Origin: Bdellovibrionota bacterium
Lineage (GTDB): Bacteria > Bdellovibrionota_C > UBA2361 > JBGSMV01
Direction: 5' to 3'
NCBI GenBank assembly: GCA_044356455.1
Contig: JBIKWF010000024.1
Location: forward strand, 1-46,164
Length of the DNA stretch: 46,164 nt
Shown here: piece after piece, positions 32,011 to 44,219 of the stretch
Layout: every line of letters begins with the position of its first letter
How positions within the stretch are numbered: position 1 is the first letter of the stretch
Notes under the pieces: generated by a model
What the model was told of the DNA's origin: nothing
Databases searched by the model: none
What the model saw: the letters and a program-made list of their open reading frames with translations, nothing else
Made by a program: the position numbers and the translations under genes

Positions 32011-33444
32011 ATGAGCCCCTCAACACCCCGCCTTGCGCTCCTTAAAAGCGAAGAACCCGAATTCCAGGCCATTGCAAGTTCCTTCGGGAGACATGCCGCG
32101 AGCCTTGAGCTCGTCCAGAACCTCGAAGAAGCAGCAGCGCTCGTGAATGACGGAGGCGCTCCTTTGCAAGGAATCCTCTATCCGCTGCGCATCCGTGCGG
32201 GACTAACCGGCATTAGTGCTTGCGTGCAATCGAAGGCCCACCCCGTCCTTTCTCTCATCCCTGCCCTGGGAATTTCTCCGACCAAAGATCGGCTCGTCAT
32301 AGACTCTTTTTATGGAGCAGGCGCAGACTGCGTTTTTGTTGTTCCCTTCGAAGCCGAACAAGTACTGATGCAAGCTGTTGCCTTAACGCGCGTATATCAA
32401 ATAGTGAAGGAGCGCTTGGCGGAGGAACGCGATACCTTTGCGCTCTCGTCAGGAGTGCTAAGTGCGCTCAATTCTCTACCCGAACCACTGGTTATTTTTG
32501 ACACGGCGGCTGGGGCCAAGTTCCTAAATTCCGCAGCCAAGAGGCTTGTTGGGATAGAGCAGGACGCCGCGATTGACCCCGAGAAGGCTCATCAATTTTT
32601 TCTGCACCTCGAACCTGCCCTTGAGACTTTCCTGAGAGACTGCAAGCCGCGAACCGGCTTAGACCCCAAGACTCTTGGCACCACAGTCACAGAAACTGAC
32701 GTCGTAAGCGCCAGCAAGCAGCGCATTCCGGTGCGCTGCACCCTTACTCCCCTGGTGGGAGAGCGTGGAGGCGTGCTTGGCGCCTCTGCCCACTTACAAA
32801 GCTTTGCTGAGCTTGAAGACGTGAAGCAGTCCTTACTCTTCGCTCAGCGCTCTCATGCACTCTCGCTGCTCGCCTCTGCCGGAATGCTTAAATTTTTGGA
32901 GCAACAGCATGGGGGCTTCCCCGTAGCGCCGGTGCAGCGCTTTATTTCTCTCTCCCAGAAGGAAGATGCTCGTTGCCGGCTCTCTCCGATCCTGACCGCA
33001 CTGATTGAAATCTTAGATAGCATTGTCCCTCCCGGCCTCACTATTATTACTAAAATGGGCGCGGACATTGAGAGTTCTGACCTTGCGGTCGCGCTTCGCC
33101 CGAGTGATGCACTTCAACTCTTTGGACATATCCTACTGCACGCCACTCGTACCTCCGGAATAGACGGAGAAGTCACGCTCTCCGCCCAACTCGACACCAG
33201 CCCTCCTTCTCAAGCAGTGGTTCTGCTTTGCACCGCAGAACAAGGCCCAAGCCGTGCCTTAATTTCTAGAGATTTAATTGGAGAGGCTACCAATTTAGGA
33301 GTGAGCCCCACAGCAGATAAAAACGGCAAGCTACTCGTCGGGCTCGACGCAGCCCAGGTCCTTGCGGACCGCTACCATGTGCGCATTGAGTTCAAGACTA
33401 CGGCGACGAGTTTTAAGGTGCGGCTACGGCTGCCTCTCTGTTAG
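32011..33444 (+). CDS. Degenerate receiver-PAS-kinase-like signalling protein
   Basis: Receiver-like N-terminus (AGADCVFVVPF), PAS (ALNSLPEPLVIFD...FLNSAAKRLVG) and a C-terminal HATPase-like tail (GLDAAQVLADRYHVRIEF...RLRLP). Phosphorylation motifs are lost. Confidence 0.6.
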   Translation: MSPSTPRLALLKSEEPEFQAIASSFGRHAASLELVQNLEEAAALVNDGGAPLQGILYPLRIRAGLTGISACVQSKAHPVLSLIPALGISPTKDRLVIDSFYGAGADCVFVVPFEAEQVLMQAVALTRVYQIVKERLAEERDTFALSSGVLSALNSLPEPLVIFDTAAGAKFLNSAAKRLVGIEQDAAIDPEKAHQFFLHLEPALETFLRDCKPRTGLDPKTLGTTVTETDVVSASKQRIPVRCTLTPLVGERGGVLGASAHLQSFAELEDVKQSLLFAQRSHALSLLASAGMLKFLEQQHGGFPVAPVQRFISLSQKEDARCRLSPILTALIEILDSIVPPGLTIITKMGADIESSDLAVALRPSDALQLFGHILLHATRTSGIDGEVTLSAQLDTSPPSQAVVLLCTAEQGPSRALISRDLIGEATNLGVSPTADKNGKLLVGLDAAQVLADRYHVRIEFKTTATSFKVRLRLPLC

Positions 33445-34988: not shown

Positions 34989-35264
34989 TTAAGCTCGGCG
35001 TGAAAGCTTTTTATCAAGCTCGAGAAGAACGAAGGCTACCGCTTCAAAAAGTGGGCCGGGAATCTGCTCATCAATCTCAAGGGCGCTCAAAGATTTCGCC
35101 AGACCTGGATTTTCAATAACGGGAACTCCATAGCGCTTGGCAAGTTTTACGACTTCGTCAGCGCGAAGCTGCTCAGCCTTAAGGCTCACGGCAGGCGCTT
35201 CCATTGATTTGGTGTCGTACTCAAGACCAACAGCACGACGATAACGCGGGCGCCGAGAGCTCAT
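34989..35264 (-). CDS. Stand-alone FlhB/SctU C-terminal (post-cleavage, CC) domain protein
   Basis: AVGLEYD...APAVSLKA...A.EVVKLAKRYGVPVIENPGLAKSL..LEIDEQIPGPLFEAVAFVL matches FlhB-CC and FlhX/YlqH-type proteins. Confidence 0.9.
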   Translation of the reverse strand: MSSRRPRYRRAVGLEYDTKSMEAPAVSLKAEQLRADEVVKLAKRYGVPVIENPGLAKSLSALEIDEQIPGPLFEAVAFVLLELDKKLSRRA

Positions 35265-38200
35265 AGCTTCTCCTTCTCAACGGCCTTTTCCAGAGAAGAG
35301 AGCGGGAATGGAAGTACACTTGCAGCGGACTTAGAAGCCCTACTCTTTTCCGCTTCAGAGCTATCAATATGAGCAGCCAACCTGAGAGCACCGCCAGAAG
35401 TTGCAACCTTTTCCAACGCCTGCCGAATATGCTCCGTCATCGACCAAATCCGAAGCGGCTTTTCAAACAAGCGCACCCGCGGCGTAGGCTCGGAAAGGCT
35501 ATTTTTGAGACGCTCTTCCCAGGTACTCATATTAGCCACGTAGGCTAAAACGCGCGCACCTGAGTGTTTCTTAAGCACCTCCGCCACGAGCTCTTCTGCG
35601 TGCACCCCTACTCTATCAAGATCCATGACAAGCACTGCGGGTTCAGGCTGCATCTGACCAACGAGCTGCACCACGCGGTCGCGAGATACGGGAACCGAAA
35701 CGATGGTGCCAGGGGCTTCAACTGAAGCCCGCAGAGAAAATGCGATGGCGTGATCGATCTCAAACAGAACCACATTCGAAATCACCCGAACACGAGATTC
35801 AGGATCTCCCTGCGACAGCTCTGCTGTTTTTTGAACCACTGCCGGCAAATAAAGCGAAAAGGTAGTTCCCCGCCCAAGCTGACTCCTCGCGGTAATTACG
35901 CCATCGTGCTGTTTCATGATGGAATAGGCAGAAGAAAGTCCTAGCCCCGAGCCTCCAAAACCAAGGCCTGTTCGCGTATCGGCGTTTTTCGTCGTAAAGA
36001 AAGGTTCGAAGCACCTGGCCAGGCTTTCTGGCGTCATGCCGGCCCCGTTATCTTCAACCTCGACTCTCAAATACACCCCAGGAGCCAGCTCAGGATCCAC
36101 CTCTCCAGAGCGCACCCGTACTCGCTTTGCCACCACTTTCACCTTGCCATCAGATTTCCCCTCAAGAGCCTCCTTGGAGTTCATGAGAAGATTTGTCACT
36201 ACCTGCTGCATCTGAGAAGAATCTGCCACAACCTGGGGGCAGTCCTCAGCAAGGTCGTATTCAAGTGCGATGGGAGAACCAAGAATAGAACGATAGAGCT
36301 CACGCGACTCAAGCAGAAACTGTTTGAGGGTAAGGGTCTCGGGGGAATAACCGCCCTGCATGGAGAAACTGAAGAGCTGCTTCACTAGCGCTGCTCCGCG
36401 CGTAGAAGCCTCAGCAATCATCTTCGCCGCCGACACAATACGCGCATCCCCGGAGGCCTGCATCTCAATCAGAGAAGCCTGCCCCATCACTGCCTGCAAC
36501 AAATTGTTAAAATTATGCGCCACGCCTGACGCAAGAAGACCTGCCATGCGCATCTTGTCCGCATCCGCCATGCGCGCTTCAAATTTGCGGGCCAAAATGA
36601 CCGTGGCGATTTCTGTCGCCATGCTGTTAAGAAGCGGAAGCTTGCGCTGAACAAAAAATCCAGAGGGGACAGCGGGTTCAACTACAAGCACCCCAACTAC
36701 TTGCCCTAAGGAAACAAGTGGCACCACCACAATAGTGCCGCAGTTCAGGCGAGCGAGCACCTTTCCAAGATCGCCACACTCCACTTCGGTTCGAGGATCA
36801 ACCACCACCGGCGTGCGCTTGGCGATGGCTTGATCAAGAAAATCCCCTCGCACATTAAGTTCTATCTGGAGATCGATTAGGTGCTTTCTGATTCCTGGCC
36901 CGACGCCCCCTGTGCCCGTAAGGTGCGAACCGCGGTTGTTCATCACGCCAAGCCACATACGCTTACAGGCAATTTCTTCTTGAATGGCCGGGAACGCATG
37001 CTCCGCGACCTCTTTAAGCGTCATCTGCTTCGAGAGCTCATGGCTCAAGCGATACAGCGCAGAGAGAGAACTTGATTGGCGCTTCTCCGCGGCAAAGAGC
37101 TCAGCTTGCCGGGCCGCAAGCGCAATCTGCGAACAAGCTGCAGAAACTAAATCGTAATCTTCATTTGAGTAGCGGCTCTCATCTCTTCTAAAGAGAACCA
37201 TGACGCCAAGCACATGCTCTTCGAATACTAGAGGCATGATAATGGTCGCATGAAGTCCTTCGTGCTTGGCAAGTTCAACCGCGGCACGGGGTTCTTGCTG
37301 AATATCCTGGAGAAGCACGCCCTCCCTACGCTCAACGGCGTCATGTGCCAGTGTCTTCTTCCCAATGATCTTTCCAATCTCTTCTATATAGCGACTCGAC
37401 AAGCCCTCTGCGGCAACCACTTCGAGCTGCCCTGAGGAGGCATCAACAAGTCCGCCGAACCCACACTCGCTACTGGTCGCCTTGAGCAGCGCACGCAGCC
37501 CCTTAAGTGCAACCACACTCGGATCAAGATTGAGCTCAAGAGAACGAGCGACTTCATAGAGAGCCTCGATTCTCTTTCCTTGAGCCTTTGACTGCTCTTC
37601 AGCCAGCCGCTGGGCCGTAATATCAAGAATAAAGCCTTCCCAGCCCGAAGAACCAACAGTATCTCCGAGTACCGCGGTGGCAGGAAAACCACGCACCAAA
37701 AGCCAGCGTGGCTCCGCCGTCTTGGCATGAGCAACTTCTATTTGAAGCGAAAACTCGGAGGGTGGGCTCATGCGAGCCCTCTCAAATAACTCGTGCAAGT
37801 GCTGAGGACGCACGAGCCGTTGCCAAGAACGAGGGCGGGAGACTATCTCTTCTTGAGAAAGTCCGATGAGGTGGAGGGTATCTCCCTCGATACTAGAGAA
37901 AGAAAGGTCTTGCTCGGCTCGTACGATAAGAATTTCACCAAACTCCATGATGCGCCGATAGAGCGCATTCCTTTGGTCAAGGGATGTTCCCTCAATCGGC
38001 GTCGCTCGTTCGCGCACATCGTGTGTGTGTGCCCCTCCTATTGCGGTAGACTTTTGCCACAGCTCTTCCTGGGAGGTGCTCGCGTATAAAGGTTGTTCCT
38101 GAGGCTCATGGTCCGCTGGCTCAGAATCTTCAGCTTCGGGAACTTCAGCTGAAACATCTTGAGATACATAGTCTGCGGGGTCATCGTCGAGATGCTCACC

Positions 38201-38749
38201 GTCTTCAGACTCGCGAGCGGTGAAATCTGTATAAAAATCGTCCGGCACATGCTCGCGAGACGGCTGGGTTTCGGAAACGAGCGGTGCGGAACTCGCCACC
38301 GGCATCTGTCCGTTTAAGCGGCGCCAATGCAGCGCCAAGAGCTCCGCGGCAATCTCGAGAACCCCAAGGACTTCTGGACGAAGCCGCACAAACCTTGAGA
38401 ACGAGGCGCCCTGAATGACTGCAACAAAACTTCCCTCGAGGAACACAGGCACCAGCACATAAGAACGCACCCCCCATTCCAAGAGACGTTCTCTGACTAA
38501 AGGAGCGAGCTGCTGGCGCTCGATATCGCTCGCGACAAGTGGCATGCGTATCTCATGCCCGGCAATAGAAACACCTCCCGCGTCAATAGAAACTTCATCA
38601 GGGGCTGTCTCTGGGGATAAGATTCTTATCTGCTCAAGCTCAAGCTGCTGAGAGAGAAACGCGGCGAGGACACTACTGGCCTCTTCTTGGGTGGATGCAG
38701 CAGAGAGTTTTCTCCGCACCTCAGTCCATGTCGCGTTTGTTTCCGTCAC
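35261..38749 (-). CDS. Cytoplasmic hybrid histidine kinase (GAF-PAS-GAF-GAF-HisKA-HATPase-receiver-like)
   Basis: H-box LASGVAHNFNNLL, QVVTNLLMNSKEA, EDNGAGM, FEPFFTTK, GSGLGLS; GAF motifs (PLVFEEHVLGVM, PLVSLGQVVGVL); C-terminal VLVMD...EKP; no TM. Confidence 0.93.
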   Translation of the reverse strand: MTETNATWTEVRRKLSAASTQEEASSVLAAFLSQQLELEQIRILSPETAPDEVSIDAGGVSIAGHEIRMPLVASDIERQQLAPLVRERLLEWGVRSYVLVPVFLEGSFVAVIQGASFSRFVRLRPEVLGVLEIAAELLALHWRRLNGQMPVASSAPLVSETQPSREHVPDDFYTDFTARESEDGEHLDDDPADYVSQDVSAEVPEAEDSEPADHEPQEQPLYASTSQEELWQKSTAIGGAHTHDVRERATPIEGTSLDQRNALYRRIMEFGEILIVRAEQDLSFSSIEGDTLHLIGLSQEEIVSRPRSWQRLVRPQHLHELFERARMSPPSEFSLQIEVAHAKTAEPRWLLVRGFPATAVLGDTVGSSGWEGFILDITAQRLAEEQSKAQGKRIEALYEVARSLELNLDPSVVALKGLRALLKATSSECGFGGLVDASSGQLEVVAAEGLSSRYIEEIGKIIGKKTLAHDAVERREGVLLQDIQQEPRAAVELAKHEGLHATIIMPLVFEEHVLGVMVLFRRDESRYSNEDYDLVSAACSQIALAARQAELFAAEKRQSSSLSALYRLSHELSKQMTLKEVAEHAFPAIQEEIACKRMWLGVMNNRGSHLTGTGGVGPGIRKHLIDLQIELNVRGDFLDQAIAKRTPVVVDPRTEVECGDLGKVLARLNCGTIVVVPLVSLGQVVGVLVVEPAVPSGFFVQRKLPLLNSMATEIATVILARKFEARMADADKMRMAGLLASGVAHNFNNLLQAVMGQASLIEMQASGDARIVSAAKMIAEASTRGAALVKQLFSFSMQGGYSPETLTLKQFLLESRELYRSILGSPIALEYDLAEDCPQVVADSSQMQQVVTNLLMNSKEALEGKSDGKVKVVAKRVRVRSGEVDPELAPGVYLRVEVEDNGAGMTPESLARCFEPFFTTKNADTRTGLGFGGSGLGLSSAYSIMKQHDGVITARSQLGRGTTFSLYLPAVVQKTAELSQGDPESRVRVISNVVLFEIDHAIAFSLRASVEAPGTIVSVPVSRDRVVQLVGQMQPEPAVLVMDLDRVGVHAEELVAEVLKKHSGARVLAYVANMSTWEERLKNSLSEPTPRVRLFEKPLRIWSMTEHIRQALEKVATSGGALRLAAHIDSSEAEKSRASKSAASVLPFPLSSLEKAVEKEKL

Positions 38750-39564
38750 GTTGAATTCGTCTTCGATAAATCGTTCCGCTCTACAATCACCACGCGCGCG
38801 CTTCGCACTCGGCGCGCAAGGTCCTGCATCACAAGGGCCTCATGAAGCGAGCGTCTAGCTCCCTTCACGTGAGGATCTCCCTCGTCTTCTCGGTGTTCCC
38901 GGCGGACCTCATCGGCCGACATGGACAACTCCCGATAAAACGCGCGGCGATTGAGCAGGTACTCGAATACGCCCAAAACCATCAGCACTGCGGCGCTTGC
39001 GGCAAGCACTGAGATAAGCGCTGAGGCGAACCACTCTGCACGAACCTGACCCGCTACCGCGAGCCCGCCCATACTGAGCTGGGTAATGCCCTCTGCTACC
39101 ACTCGAGAAACAGTCAATCCCAAAACCCAAACAAGCAACGCGAGCTGCACCACCGTGCGCCAGCCTCTTGCAAGTCCCGACCAAATACGACCAAATCCTG
39201 AAACTGGATTGCATCGCTCGGGATTAAAACCAACGCCCTCAGGTTCGAACGTAACTCCAACTTGAAGCGCTTCCACTAGAATTGCGATTACCGCCCCGGC
39301 ACCTAAACTCCCGCCTACAAGAAGCACAAGCTCTGCAAGAAAGGACCGAGAACAGTACTCTAGATGGGAAGCCCCCTCGATAAAACAATAGTTTATCAAG
39401 TTAGCATTCCTTACCCAACTATACCGAATAAGGCCGAGAAGAGCCCCAGAAACTGCCATAAGTACAGCCACTTGCGATAGTAGCTGACTTTTGAGTACCT
39501 GCCCTTTTCGGCGTGCCTCTAAAACTCGCTTCGGGGTGGGGTGAAATCCCTTATCTTCTGCCAT
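38746..39564 (-). CDS. SctU/FlhB export switch protein, N-terminal part only (TM plus CN; no NPTH)
   Basis: EDK..HPTPKRVLEARRKGQVLKS, RCNPVSGFGRI, LSMSADEVRREHREDEGDPHVKGARR; ends SARVVIVERNDLSKTNST. Confidence 0.9.
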   Translation of the reverse strand: MAEDKGFHPTPKRVLEARRKGQVLKSQLLSQVAVLMAVSGALLGLIRYSWVRNANLINYCFIEGASHLEYCSRSFLAELVLLVGGSLGAGAVIAILVEALQVGVTFEPEGVGFNPERCNPVSGFGRIWSGLARGWRTVVQLALLVWVLGLTVSRVVAEGITQLSMGGLAVAGQVRAEWFASALISVLAASAAVLMVLGVFEYLLNRRAFYRELSMSADEVRREHREDEGDPHVKGARRSLHEALVMQDLARRVRSARVVIVERNDLSKTNST

Positions 39565-40483: not shown

Positions 40484-40747
40484 TCATGGCATTTTCCCAA
40501 GGTACGAGATGCTCGCCAACATCTGCTGCAAAAAGCCCACGAGCTCCCCCCAGAACCAGCCACCACAAAGGGCAAAAACTCCGCAGACTGAGAGAAATCG
40601 CACGGCGAACCCAATGCTCTGCTCCTGAATCTGCGTCAGCGTTTGAAGGAGAGAAACAACAAAGCCAGCAACGCAGCTTGCAGCGAGCGGAATGCCGCTC
40701 ACCAGAGCAACCACAACAAACGCTTTGGTAAGATAGAGATCAAACAT
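40484..40747 (-). CDS. SctS/FliQ export gate protein
   Basis: 87 aa from ATG 40747; P.....AGFVVSLLQTLTQIQEQSIGFAVR motif. Confidence 0.92.
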   Translation of the reverse strand: MFDLYLTKAFVVVALVSGIPLAASCVAGFVVSLLQTLTQIQEQSIGFAVRFLSVCGVFALCGGWFWGELVGFLQQMLASISYLGKMP

Positions 40748-40754
40748 ACCACGC

Positions 40755-41462
40755 TCAGAGATAAGACTGCAGGAGCCCCTTCGCCAGAAGCAGCCAGCCG
40801 TCAGCCACGACAAAAAGAACTAGCTTCAAGGGCAGAGAAACCATGACAGGACTCACCATCATCATCCCCATTCCCACCAGCACATTCGCAACAATCAAGT
40901 CGATCACAAGAAACGGCAGCAGCAACACAAAACCCATGGCGAATGCTTCTTTTAGCTCCGTAAGCACAAACGCAGGAAGAAGAGCGCTAAGCGGAATACT
41001 CTCAGGCGCGGGAGCTTCCTTAAATTCCAAAGCGGAAGGCGCTTCTTCTTTAGGCTGCTCAGAACGCGCGTGTGTTTGGCGCGCCGCAAGATCAGTAAGA
41101 ACTCTAAGCTCACGACTACCACTATGCGCCAAGAGAAACGTACGAAAAGGAGCAAGCGCCGGGGTAAGCGCAGAGAAACCAGCCAAGGTTGGCGTCTCCA
41201 TCAAGCTTTGGAGCTTCTTCTCATCAAGAGCTTTTACACTCTCATCAAGCACTGGGCCCATGGTGTAAAGCGTGAGAGAAAGAGAAAGCGCCATAATCAC
41301 AAGCCCGCTCGGTACTTGCTGGGTACCAAGCGCACTCCTAAGAAGTCCAAGAACCACACTAATCTTCACGTAGGCAGTAAAGAGACCAAGAACTATTGGG
41401 ATAGCCGCAAAGGCCGCCGCAACAAGTACAAGCCATACGGGATGCATTGTTTGGCTTAACAT
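40755..41462 (-). CDS. SctR/FliP export gate protein (injectisome-type residues)
   Basis: TAYVKISVVLGLLRSALGTQQVP, LLPAFVLTELKEAF, LPFLVIDLIVANVL..MGMMMVSP..VSLPLKL.LFV..DGW; no FliP-type cleavable leader. Confidence 0.95.
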   Translation of the reverse strand: MLSQTMHPVWLVLVAAAFAAIPIVLGLFTAYVKISVVLGLLRSALGTQQVPSGLVIMALSLSLTLYTMGPVLDESVKALDEKKLQSLMETPTLAGFSALTPALAPFRTFLLAHSGSRELRVLTDLAARQTHARSEQPKEEAPSALEFKEAPAPESIPLSALLPAFVLTELKEAFAMGFVLLLPFLVIDLIVANVLVGMGMMMVSPVMVSLPLKLVLFVVADGWLLLAKGLLQSYL

Positions 41463-41908
41463 AAGACCATCCTTGGCTCCCCGCCGCTTTCAGACTGCGC
41501 CCTCTGCGTTTCTTCAAGGTTTTGCGGCGCTCGTATCGATGACTGACTTCGAACGTGCGTGCTCGAAAACTCCCCCAAAGAGCAAATGCCTGAGGGCGAG
41601 CAGGCAATCAGAAGTTCTCTCTGGTCCATGGTTACGAGCACAAGGCGCTGCCCCTTCTCAAGAGAAAGTGATTCTATCAACTTGAGCCTAGCCGAGGGAC
41701 GCCGAGAGTCTCTTTGCCTGCGAAGAACTACGCGCGAAAGCAGCCAGAAGACACCAAGCACAAAAAGACTTTTTCCGAAGGCCCCCAGATAATCAGAATC
41801 ACTGAGAGCCGCATCACTGAAAGCCTTCGACGCATCTTGTGCGAGCCCAAGCGTAGGGCACAGCAAGATTCCAAATAGGAGGCGCGAGAAATACAAAACG
41901 TTAGCCAC
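41456..41908 (-). CDS. FliO-like protein
   Basis: Signal/TM segment, TM, then RLKLIESLSLEKGQRLVLVTMDQRELLIACSPSGICSL (FliO cytoplasmic pattern). Directly upstream of sctR; GTG 41908 preferred. Confidence 0.8.
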   Translation of the reverse strand: MANVLYFSRLLFGILLCPTLGLAQDASKAFSDAALSDSDYLGAFGKSLFVLGVFWLLSRVVLRRQRDSRRPSARLKLIESLSLEKGQRLVLVTMDQRELLIACSPSGICSLGEFSSTHVRSQSSIRAPQNLEETQRAQSESGGEPRMVLC

Positions 41909-42968
41909 GACGATCTCCTTTCTGGACTGCCCCCACGTGCGCTCCCGCAACTTTCATTCCTTGACGCTCAATTGAGTTCTTTACTTCCCTGAGCGCACGC
42001 CCCATAAGGTGCTGCTCTGCGAGAGACTCAGGCGCAAGCGAAACCACCGTGCCCTTGTCGGGGAGGTGCGTAAGCTGAACGTTCAATTTGCGACCCTCAG
42101 AGGAAGAGAAGGAAAAAGAGACCCCTGCCCCACGCGAGTCGCTCCAACTCTCAAGCCCGGAGAGACGCTCCGCAAAGTCGCCTGCCTTAACCGAGCTTCC
42201 GTACCCTGCGCTACGCAGCTGCTCTTGAAGGGTGTTCTCTGGTTGAGGCTGCTGCCTTGAAGACTGGCCCGAGGAGTCTTGCGTCCCACCTTCGCCTTGA
42301 CGACTCAAGTGAACTAGGCCAGTTGCTACATTACTTGGATCAATTTCACGCTGCTTCACAGACTCTGGTTGCGTCGCCGAATCCGCCTGCTCAAGCCCCT
42401 GCTTCTCCTTGGTAGCTGCCACCGCTTCAGCACTCGAACGTGTATCCTTTTCAAGGTCCTCCCGGGTAGAAACCGCGGAAAGCTTGACCGTTCCTTCAAC
42501 TTTCTCTTTACCGCTTCGAGCGAGACGAACCGCACCCATAAGCTCATTCACTGCCTGTTCCTGAGAAACTTCCCCAGCCTGGGCCTTTCGTCTCACCAAG
42601 GTAGCGAGAGCTTCCCCAAGCTTGTCAAAGCGCACCTTCCCGGTGGCGAGCTCGGCGAGCGCCTTGCCTTGCGTCTCAGTGAGAACCGCAAGCTTACCCT
42701 GCGCTTGAGTGAGTTCTTTCTTCTCCTGCTGCACACGCTTTAATCCTTCCCGAAGGGCAAGCGACTGTAGCTTGGGGTCCTTTAGTTCACGTGAGTGTGC
42801 GAGGAACTTCTCGCACACGCTCTTAAAGCTGGTTTCTACGCGTTCAGTTTTTGCACGCGATTCCTGGACTTCTCGTCCGATCGCGCTGGCTCTTGTCTCT
42901 AGCCCCCGGAGCTGTATACGCTCGACATCGCGCCGAATCTCAACCCTCTCGAAATCTGAAATTTCCAT
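41901..42968 (-). CDS. Putative FliJ/SctO-like coiled coil fused to a FliK/SctP-like C-terminal domain
   Basis: About 150-aa coiled coil ending RFDKLGE...EVSQEQAVNELM, a Q/S-rich linker, and C-terminal GRKLNVQL...VVSLAPES......LREVKNSIERQGMKV. Confidence 0.6.
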   Translation of the reverse strand: MEISDFERVEIRRDVERIQLRGLETRASAIGREVQESRAKTERVETSFKSVCEKFLAHSRELKDPKLQSLALREGLKRVQQEKKELTQAQGKLAVLTETQGKALAELATGKVRFDKLGEALATLVRRKAQAGEVSQEQAVNELMGAVRLARSGKEKVEGTVKLSAVSTREDLEKDTRSSAEAVAATKEKQGLEQADSATQPESVKQREIDPSNVATGLVHLSRQGEGGTQDSSGQSSRQQPQPENTLQEQLRSAGYGSSVKAGDFAERLSGLESWSDSRGAGVSFSFSSSEGRKLNVQLTHLPDKGTVVSLAPESLAEQHLMGRALREVKNSIERQGMKVAGAHVGAVQKGDRRG

Positions 42969-42980
42969 TTGCCGCTCTCG

Positions 42981-43331
42981 TTATGGTTGGCTTTGCAGTT
43001 TACGAAGAGTTCCAAGCAAGCTCTCTGCGACCTTCGATACGAGCTCTACTCGCATGTTAAATTGACCGGCTTTAATTTGATAAAGCAGCAGCTCTCGTGC
43101 ATCAAAGGCGCCGCCCCCAAGAGCTTTCTGCTGAAGGGCGCCTAGTTCTTTGTGGAGATTGTTCGAGAAGGGGTCTTTGGAGCTTGGAGATGCGGCAATC
43201 TTCTCGAACAGCTCCCTAAAGCCCTGAGCAGAACCTGAATGTGGCGTGGTAGGCTTTGGGCCAGGGGCCTGTATTCCCTGTGACCCTGAAAAGGATTGAG
43301 ACACGGCAAGTGGTTGAATTGATGAGGTCAT
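42981..43331 (-). CDS. SctI (EscI/YscI/HrpB2-like) inner-rod-type protein
   Basis: 116 aa from ATG 43331 (AGGGG upstream); disordered N-terminus and C-terminal ELLLYQIKAGQFNMRVELVSKVAESLLGTLRKLQSQ. Confidence 0.6.
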   Translation of the reverse strand: MTSSIQPLAVSQSFSGSQGIQAPGPKPTTPHSGSAQGFRELFEKIAASPSSKDPFSNNLHKELGALQQKALGGGAFDARELLLYQIKAGQFNMRVELVSKVAESLLGTLRKLQSQP

Positions 43332-43430
43332 GAGCGCCCCTTTTCCCTGTGTTGAGCTTCTTCGCGCTACCCTCATCGGAAATTTGAGCCAAAAGTTTCC
43401 TGTGGGAGAGAAAATATTTCATTTTCTCTA

Positions 43431-43703: not shown

Positions 43704-44219
43704 ATGGTGCGTGTGAAAGCTGAATTAACTGCCGAAATTGCTGGGATGATTTTCCTTGTTCGAGGTAGACGCGTCATGCTTGACTCCGATCTCGCGCGTC
43801 TTTACGGGGTAGGGACAAACCAAGTCAATCGTGCGGTGCTCCGGAATCCTGAAAGATTTCCCGAAGACTTCTATTTTCAATTGAGTTATCAAGAAGTTGC
43901 AAACTTGAAGTGCCAAATTGGCACTTCAAGTTCTTGGGGTGGCAGGCGGCGATCCTTGCCATTTGCGTTTACTGAACAGGGCGTAGCGATGCTTTCGAGC
44001 GTACTACGTAGCAGGGAAGCTGCGACCATCAATGTTCAAGTGATGCGAGCCTTTGTTTCAATGCGTGAAGCTCTGTCGACACACCTAGAGCTATCGGGGA
44101 AATTGGAACAGCTTGAGTATCGACTCGGCAAGCATGATGACGAAATTGCAGCGCTGTTTGAGGCAATCAAGCAACTCATGCTTCCCATAAGTCACAAAAA
44201 ACGCCGCATAGGCTTCTAA
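43704..44219 (+). CDS. ORF6N-domain (KilA-N-like) DNA-binding protein
   Basis: RGRRVMLDSDLARLYGV...RNPERFPEDFYFQL...FAFTEQGVAMLSSVLRS...RRIGF. Confidence 0.93.
   Translation: MVRVKAELTAEIAGMIFLVRGRRVMLDSDLARLYGVGTNQVNRAVLRNPERFPEDFYFQLSYQEVANLKCQIGTSSSWGGRRRSLPFAFTEQGVAMLSSVLRSREAATINVQVMRAFVSMREALSTHLELSGKLEQLEYRLGKHDDEIAALFEAIKQLMLPISHKKRRIGF

Follow-up and report, generated by a model that had tools for sequence, protein, structure and literature searches.

A probable ancient gene split of the SctU/FlhB export switch in a non-flagellar type III apparatus of a lake lineage labelled Bdellovibrionota

Introduction

To our knowledge, autocleavage at the NPTH motif is regarded as a defining feature shared by every SctU/FlhB, the export switch protein of non-flagellar and flagellar type III apparatuses. 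In the systems studied, the ruler (T3S4) protein and early substrates bind the PTH loop, and the question of whether importance attaches to the cut itself or to the state it produces has so far been argued from engineered mutants. The separate parts of Salmonella FlhB have reportedly been co-produced. In Xanthomonas, the C-terminal fragment of HrcU (residues 265-357) functions in trans, from which its authors conclude that what counts is the outcome of cleavage and not its occurrence; NPTH is required there for binding of the T3S4 protein and of an early substrate, according to the accessible text of the study (PMC3040844), which also refers to a C-terminal fragment in trans in Helicobacter pylori (Wand 2006, as cited in PMC3040844). 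The present work concerns a stretch of 46,164 nucleotides, contig JBIKWF010000024.1 of the genome assembly GCA_044356455.1 (the window), on which sctU is represented by two genes, one for a membrane part (N-part) and one for a CC subdomain (CC-part), with the gene of a sensor histidine kinase between them. This arrangement is likely to represent an old and functional splitting of the gene for the SctU/FlhB export switch in a non-flagellar apparatus of a Bdellovibrionota-labelled lake lineage.

Split genes are known in T3SS (type III secretion systems), namely the rhizobial-type secretin RhcC1/RhcC2, which has a gene between its halves, and HrcQA/HrcQB (accessible text of PMC3574062). A needle-less non-flagellar T3SS (NF-T3SS, named T3SS*) of Myxococcus works with the Tad-like Kil system (PMC12428579, PMC10849154, PMC3459982), and the pairing of Kil and T3SS* is described, in the accessible parts of two of these sources, as restricted to Cystobacterineae (PMC12428579, PMC10849154). 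Searches of literature listings and abstracts, together with text of open papers including PMC12075869 and with subscription papers excepted, returned no description of a natural split of sctU or flhB or of a kinase within one.

Position of the break in sctU

An earlier reading of the window from its letters alone (the sequence-only reading) had described a 272-residue SctU/FlhB that lacks both NPTH and the CC subdomain, and a 91-residue gene for the CC subdomain alone. Pfam and phmmer agree with both descriptions. On the Bac_export_2 profile (PF01312), the N-part covers positions 2-256 of 335 (E 2.9e-46) and the CC-part positions 262-332 of 335. Positions 257-261 alone are uncovered, so that only the five positions holding NPTH are missing. 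In phmmer alignments against PDB chains, N-part residues 3-262 correspond to residues 7-269 of a 383-residue FlhB, with E262 opposite N269 of NPTH, and CC-part residues 11-81 correspond to FlhB 274-345. The N-part also aligns with FlhB and SpaS chains of solved export gates, and the chains deposited separately for CN and for CC of cleaved FlhB, YscU and EscU map to N-part 212-260 and CC-part 11-81, respectively. Both pieces of the cytoplasmic C-domain are present yet carried on two polypeptides, with CN in N-part 212-262 and CC in CC-part 11-81. Taken together, the phmmer and Pfam alignments indicate that the sctU gene is broken at the autocleavage site, between the positions of N and P. In a MAFFT alignment that combined intact FlhB with the halves, the tails of the N-parts were placed wrongly, and the phmmer-to-PDB alignments were used for the break position.

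Where relatives read ..VIVTNPTH, the N-part reads ..VVIVERND and runs on for ten residues past the position of the cleavage Asn (E262) before its stop; the translation closes with SARVVIVERNDLSKTNST and the stop, as the sequence-only reading had it. The CC-part has a basic N-terminus of ten residues where PTH would stand. Four transmembrane (TM)-like segments are found in the N-part, which lies directly downstream of sctR-sctS-sctT here and in relatives. On the SctU model TIGR01404 the N-part scores 145.2 bits and the CC-part 61.3 bits; both values lie below the whole-protein cut-off of 358, each half covering only part of the model. The coordinates and lengths of the open reading frames (ORFs) had been given correctly before, as had the two 4-nt overlaps, in which the TGA of the N-part overlaps the GTG start of the kinase (GTGA, 38749-38746) and the kinase stop overlaps the ATG of the CC-part (ATGA). 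The possibility that another frame restores NPTH plus CC was addressed by a six-frame PF01312 search of the whole genome, which found no such frame and no further CC-like stretch on the window's contig.

Conservation of the split across the lineage

The same-order sample comprised 40 relatives from 21 families, and 37 loci were fetched from it. N-type and CC-type matches lie on one contig and strand in 35 of the 40 genomes, spaced by 1.7-6.0 kb in 31 and by 12-71 bp in four; the remaining five are accounted for by the ends of contigs, by a location on different contigs, by an N-part that has diverged or by a genome that is 62% complete. Most same-order genomes also carry a separate intact FlhB of about 360-390 residues. 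According to tblastn, the gene order in the 37 loci is (131-residue ORF)-sctR-S-T-N-part-kinase-CC-part-FHA, often followed by a PAS protein and an epimerase. The order of N-part, kinase and CC-part, whose conservation the sequence-only reading had left to be examined, recurs widely: a kinase core stands between or beside the halves in 33 of the 37 loci, and the GAF-GAF region is also found in 30. Other orders of the class contribute 17 genomes with a spacing of 1.9-3.4 kb between N-part and CC-part, and a kinase of the PAS/GAF/histidine kinase (HK) type is located between or beside the halves in all 13 loci fetched from these orders.

The ends of the two proteins are equally regular. All N-part orthologues end 0-15 residues past a strand of the form ...R(S/A)(K/R)V(I/V)(I/V)V, the stop position being shared by 46 orthologues from relatives' loci, and all CC-part orthologues begin a few residues ahead of ...A(V/I)GLxY. 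The motif NP[TS][HR] occurs in one of 47 N-parts, at residue 8 and far from the break, and in none of 51 CC-parts. An N-part match at E <= 1e-9 is present in 105 of the 124 genomes of the phylum in the genome library. A profile built from 33 N-parts, run against 1.84 billion representatives, retrieved 12,330 proteins at E <= 0.001; the top-ranking 150 of these are all full-profile matches of 248-290 residues, NP[TS][HR] is found in none of these 150, and at least 150 clusters at 50% identity are relatives of truncated length. The nearest full-length relatives that could be read, of 346 and 343 residues, keep NPTH or NPTR. Fused forms of 477-2000 residues were not found, which is weak evidence, and a search for related loci with the kinase protein returned two members of the lineage only. 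An intact gene in close relatives, which would point to a recent lesion, was found in none of the fetched loci. These distributions indicate that the split of sctU is conserved across the whole phylum-level lineage and is no recent pseudogene.

Predicted reassembly of the two parts

Residues 205-272 of the N-part and the CC-part were co-folded from separate alignments in three runs, along with three controls. The score was 0.63 in all three runs versus 0.00 for the best of the three controls; the mark applied to it is reached by 116 of 157 solved complexes and, among 215 mismatched pairs, by 2. At least 96% of contacts are shared between the runs, and the predicted local distance difference test score (pLDDT) of the partner is at least 71. 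In the modelled interface, residues 252-265 of the N-part meet residues 5-16 and 47-57 of the CC-part, placing the last strand of the N-part within the CC sheet, which is the central-strand arrangement of cleaved SctU C-domains. The co-folding suggested by the sequence-only reading thus predicts that the halves reassemble like cleaved SctU, with a caveat about memory of solved structures that is weighed below, and it indicates likeness to cleaved SctU, not binding.

The kinase between the halves

The intervening kinase is composed, in this order, of an N-terminal GAF-like domain, an acidic linker, PAS, GAF, GAF, HisKA and HATPase domains and a C-terminus of receiver fold. Pfam recognises two to three GAF domains and HATPase_c (E 1.3e-21), HisKA weakly (E 0.0021), and gives weak matches to PAS (E 0.0055) and to the N-terminal GAF (E 0.0004). 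The HisKA-HATPase core is CckA/VirA-like by NCBIfam, and no TM segment is predicted in the protein. In the C-terminal 173 residues Pfam gives no match to a receiver domain. The predicted structure of this region is a (beta-alpha)5 receiver fold (pLDDT 83.1), with CheY-like receiver and pseudo-receiver domains as its top PDB fold matches, and the term 'hybrid' kinase used in the sequence-only reading appears acceptable on the grounds of this modelled fold and its matches. Across orthologues, the acceptor Asp and Lys-Pro are common in the C-terminus. The N-terminal acidic pair is not conserved, and the domain may therefore be a pseudo-receiver.

The H-box His is conserved across 34 kinase orthologues, as are boxes N, G1, F and G2; judged by these motifs, the kinase is predicted to be catalytically intact. 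Mean identity of the same 34 orthologues to the window's kinase amounts to 41-58% in the GAF-HK core and to 12-19% at the ends. The N-parts, at 17-44% identity, fall below the kinase core.

The secretion system and other copies in the genome

The genome of the window (4.7 Mb, 216 contigs, 93% complete, metagenome-assembled) holds five PF01312 matches. A full-length, NPTH-containing FlhB/SctU, for which the sequence-only reading had advised checking the genome, is present once, as an intact 364-residue FlhB with VIVTNPTHISIALRYD in a separate flagellar operon of the order fliQ-fliR-flhB-flhA on another contig. In NCBIfam, non-flagellar Sct models outscore the flagellar models for both halves of SctU and for SctR/S/T. 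As this intact FlhB of the flagellar operon and another, lone CC protein are also encoded in the genome, the split pair belongs to a second, non-flagellar system; for the same reason, the contrast that had been drawn with FlhX-type proteins, as companions of a full-length FlhB, stands only after adjustment.

The genes of this apparatus are distributed over the genome: sctR, sctS, sctT, a FliO-like gene and an FHA gene are located in the window, and sctV, sctJ and sctQ elsewhere. FHIPEP genes and SctJ/FliF-type genes number three each in the genome, and two FliI/YscN-type ATPases exceed the cut-off; an extra SctV, SctJ and SctQ and one extra FliI/YscN-type ATPase are present. Most same-order genomes likewise have three FHIPEP genes, falling into score classes of about 850, 580 and 450 bits, the last with about 620 residues. 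These FHIPEP counts suggest that the lineage has a flagellum and two non-flagellar gates with scattered loci.

A third sctRST set, on a different contig, is followed by a shorter SctU N-part of 224 residues (L071:3134-3808), which ends straight after the last TM helix, where the EGD motif has its position, and has neither a CN linker nor a CC gene nearby. With this 224-residue N-part lacking CN and CC and with the split sctU, both non-flagellar gates would have a non-canonical SctU. The lone CC protein of 87 residues, on yet another contig (L072:6517-6780), fits flhB_rel best (83 bits, under cut-off), and a third, lone CC match is found in many relatives.

Two further loci on other contigs carry components of non-flagellar systems. 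A 723-residue non-flagellar sctV stands directly beside Tad/Flp pilus genes (L068:5004-17994), which comprise two TadB/C-like genes, a CpaF-like ATPase, RcpC/CpaB and a ParA-like gene; protein-kinase-like genes flank this sctV. The sctJ/sctQ locus (L069:2249-9384) is a block of FHA (144 residues), receiver (155 residues), a protein with two FHA domains (447 residues), FHA (484 residues), SctJ, proteins of 73 and 104 residues, and SctQ. This block is conserved in three same-order genomes (L092-L096), in which the receiver is 69-87% and the 73-residue protein 51-87% identical; no family match was obtained for the 73-residue protein.

Genes and layout of the operon

The genes from the 131-residue ORF through the FHA gene form one tightly packed block on the minus strand of the window, according to its ORF list (Table 1). 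By tblastn, approximately the last 55 residues of the 131-residue protein, a possible inner-rod (SctI)-like protein, are matched upstream of sctR at most of the relatives' loci. Pfam and NCBIfam scans gave no match for the 355-residue protein. SctR fits non-flagellar EscR/YscR/HrcR models best in NCBIfam, with 191.7 bits at a cut-off of 179. The real start of SctS is probably more internal than that of the ORF as called. The FHA protein has one C-terminal TM anchor and resembles the cytoplasmic domain of SctD; its gene lies downstream of the CC-part in most relatives and ends the conserved block. The gene of the PAS-containing protein adjoins the FHA gene in 10 of the 37 same-order loci (tblastn). 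Just upstream of the operon, where the conserved block ends, lies an ORF6N-domain gene (43704-44219, plus strand; E 2.2e-32).

Table 1. Genes of the split-sctU operon and its convergent neighbour in the window
Feature	Position	Strand	Evidence or remark
131-residue protein, first gene of the operon, possible SctI-like inner rod	42981..43376	-	PF17001 T3SS_basalb_I E 0.14, sub-threshold
355-residue protein, no family	41901..42968	-	No TM-like segment; weakly conserved, few relatives (tblastn)
FliO-like small membrane protein, 164 residues	41456..41950	-	PF04347 E 2.2e-9; TIGR03500 E 1.7e-11, under cut-off
SctR/FliP export-gate subunit, 235 residues	40755..41462	-	PF00813 E 4.7e-57
SctS/FliQ export-gate subunit, 109-residue ORF	40484..40813	-	PF01313 E 1.1e-18; SctS model above FliQ model
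SctT/FliR export-gate subunit, 270 residues	39574..40386	-	PF01311 E 2.5e-21; SctT model above FliR model
SctU N-part, 272 residues	38746..39564	-	Four TM helices, cytoplasmic linker and first beta strand
Soluble hybrid sensor histidine kinase, 1162 residues	35261..38749	-	Pfam, NCBIfam, fold of C-terminus
SctU CC-part, 91 residues	34989..35264	-	Pfam; alignment to solved CC chains
FHA-domain protein, 374 residues	33689..34813	-	PF00498 and PF16697 Yop-YscD_cpl; TM-like segment 346-364
PAS-containing protein, 477 residues, convergent with the operon	32011..33444	+	Weak PAS_4 E 0.0053

Alternative explanations

A source that is metagenome-assembled and divided into 216 contigs lends some colour to the suspicion that sequencing or assembly went wrong at the split, or that an ordinary sctU was recently inactivated, and the sequence-only reading had named a frameshift or misassembly over 38740-38800 as a point to verify. 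The stretch is matched by lake-water metagenomes, and junction contigs from three runs are unflagged as possible source. The N-part stop and kinase start are bridged by contigs X3 (38507-39529), X4 (38297-39069) and X5 (38554-39046), and the kinase stop and CC-part start by X3 (35215-36067) and X4 (35186-35421), with a few substitutions and no insertions or deletions listed. With both junctions shared by independent contigs of other samples, the same stops kept in relatives at 17-44% protein identity, truncated-length relatives filling the clusters counted above and no intact orthologue at the fetched loci, an error or a fresh lesion is next to impossible. Somewhat more can be said for the view that the 91-residue protein is an FlhX/YlqH-type accessory of the flagellar FlhB and the N-part a lone gate subunit devoid of a C-domain, as the genome does hold an intact FlhB, the CC-part matches the flhB_rel model TIGR00789 at 54 bits, and stand-alone CC proteins beside full-length FlhB exist elsewhere (H. 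pylori FlhX/HP1575). However, the SctU model gives the CC-part 61.3 bits, more than does flhB_rel, on which it falls below the cut-off of 117.35 and is surpassed by the other lone CC protein of the genome; its own system is without an intact SctU. Furthermore, in 35 of 40 relatives no more than a few kb separate it from the N-part, and the N-part retains a linker and a strand that are meaningful only with a CC partner, the co-fold using that very strand. An accessory role of this kind is therefore very improbable.

It is harder to dismiss, though still rather unlikely, that the kinase is a passenger: sctU would have been split first, and an unrelated kinase inserted later and kept by operon order, with no role in secretion. 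Several observations speak for this and against a dedicated role of the kinase. It is gone from between the halves in four of the 37 same-order loci, belonging to families f3 and f13, in which the halves are adjacent, and no GAF-GAF orthologue was found elsewhere in these kinase-less genomes. In family f7 (three loci) the kinase has shrunk to the HK core, and in two loci (L043/G040 and L054/G009) the CC-part is set apart from the kinase by an extra 2.8 kb and 2.0 kb, respectively. The poorly conserved ends described above are the N- and C-terminal domains of the kinase. The 155-residue receiver of the sctJ/sctQ locus, a candidate partner of the kinase, gave a negative phyletic profile, showing no link: it is present at 55-60% identity in the kinase-less f3 and at 43% in f13, and in one short-kinase genome only a 33% match occurs and its orthologue was not found. 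On the other side stand the same slot held by the kinase in nearly all loci of its own order and in all those of other orders, a kinase core better conserved than the SctU halves, and stop/start overlaps that recur at both kinase ends; the N-part stop and kinase start overlap or are at most 5 nt apart in 14 of 31 loci and the kinase stop overlaps the CC-part start in 20 of 34, counts that are approximate since the start codons of orthologues were picked by rule. A quick tree of N-parts, whose deep branches mostly lack support, unites the other orders in one clade (support 95) with a kinase in all 12 and places the f3 group beside a kinase-bearing family (support 92). As the kinase is found on both sides of the deepest N-part split, it is most simply ancestral to the clade, with its absence explained by one or two losses.

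The reading as an ancient, functional split also has to bear some general points. Two-chain CN/CC structures of FlhB, YscU and EscU are already solved, so that the co-fold pass may be memory; no RNA run is among those listed as matching the stretch; and secretion by the split-sctU apparatus is a prediction from its genes.

Proposed mechanism

If sctU is functionally split, as is likely, the membrane-bound N-part would insert in the gate and the soluble CC-part would dock by strand complementation, the last strand of the N-part (approximately residues 252-265) slotting between two strands of the CC-part. The result would be the same two-chain domain that autocleavage yields, born 'pre-cleaved', with the cleavage chemistry dispensable. 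The proposal of the sequence-only reading that a gene split here replaces cleavage is well supported by the break position, the conservation, the absence of NPTH and the co-fold. With the PTH loop absent, the usual switching trigger is probably not used; from the loss, ruler-driven switching would be expected to be lacking, in keeping with a needle-less apparatus of the kind of the Myxococcus T3SS*.

The packing of the genes suggests that the kinase is co-transcribed with the halves and often translationally coupled to them. With moderate confidence, the kinase can be regarded as a dedicated cytoplasmic signal input to the apparatus, although its role may be only regulatory. The further suggestion of the sequence-only reading, a possible tie between kinase signalling and the export switch, continues to draw on the conserved, tight gene order, and has to accommodate the loci at which the kinase is missing or reduced. 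In its strongest form, which is speculative and distinctly unlikely, N-part, kinase and CC-part would be made in fixed order from their coupled frames and form a ternary complex, in which the state of kinase signalling (bound ligand, autophosphorylation or the receiver domain) would decide whether the CC-part docks on the N-part and would so gate secretion by a needle-less T3SS, in place of a ruler acting on a self-cleaved loop.

Comparison with known systems

Canonical SctU/FlhB proteins (YscU, EscU, SpaS, HrcU, FlhB) share with the split pair the four-TM N-domain, the linker and the beta strand with CC. Their genes also follow sctRST, and their end state likewise consists of two polypeptides. 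The pair described here differs in having no NPTH or PTH loop, in being encoded by two genes and in the 3.5-kb kinase gene that mostly stands between them. The trans-fragments made in the laboratory, such as those of HrcU, are similarly produced as separate membrane and CC parts and are functional in their systems. They are engineered and keep PTH on the fragment, whereas the present pair is natural, phylum-wide and motif-free. A large natural lineage that has long been without the cleavage chemistry or its motif and has kept both pieces amounts to a natural experiment favouring the importance of the two-piece state, and offers a motif-free pair ready for structural and biochemical work.

FlhX, HP1575 and YlqH resemble the CC-part in being CC-only proteins of approximately 90 residues without NPTH. 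However, they accompany an intact FlhB, while the CC-part would be the only C-subdomain of its own system. The divided RhcC1/RhcC2 and HrcQA/HrcQB also present a core T3SS gene as two ORFs, sometimes with an intervening gene, as is seen here; in these cases another component is split, the break is not at a self-cleavage site and no kinase lies between the halves. The kinase has been retained in the gap in different orders, which hints at a possible new control of a type III apparatus.

The apparatus recalls the Myxococcus T3SS* in its non-flagellar gate, a predator-related lineage, scattered loci, FHA proteins and an sctV beside Tad genes. The nearest full-length relatives compared, those of 346 and 343 residues, keep NPTH or NPTR. 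The Bdellovibrio-like hosts, the position of sctV beside Tad genes and the many FHA proteins suggest that a contact-killing machinery of the Myxococcus style may be more widely spread than the accessible parts of the reviews describe.

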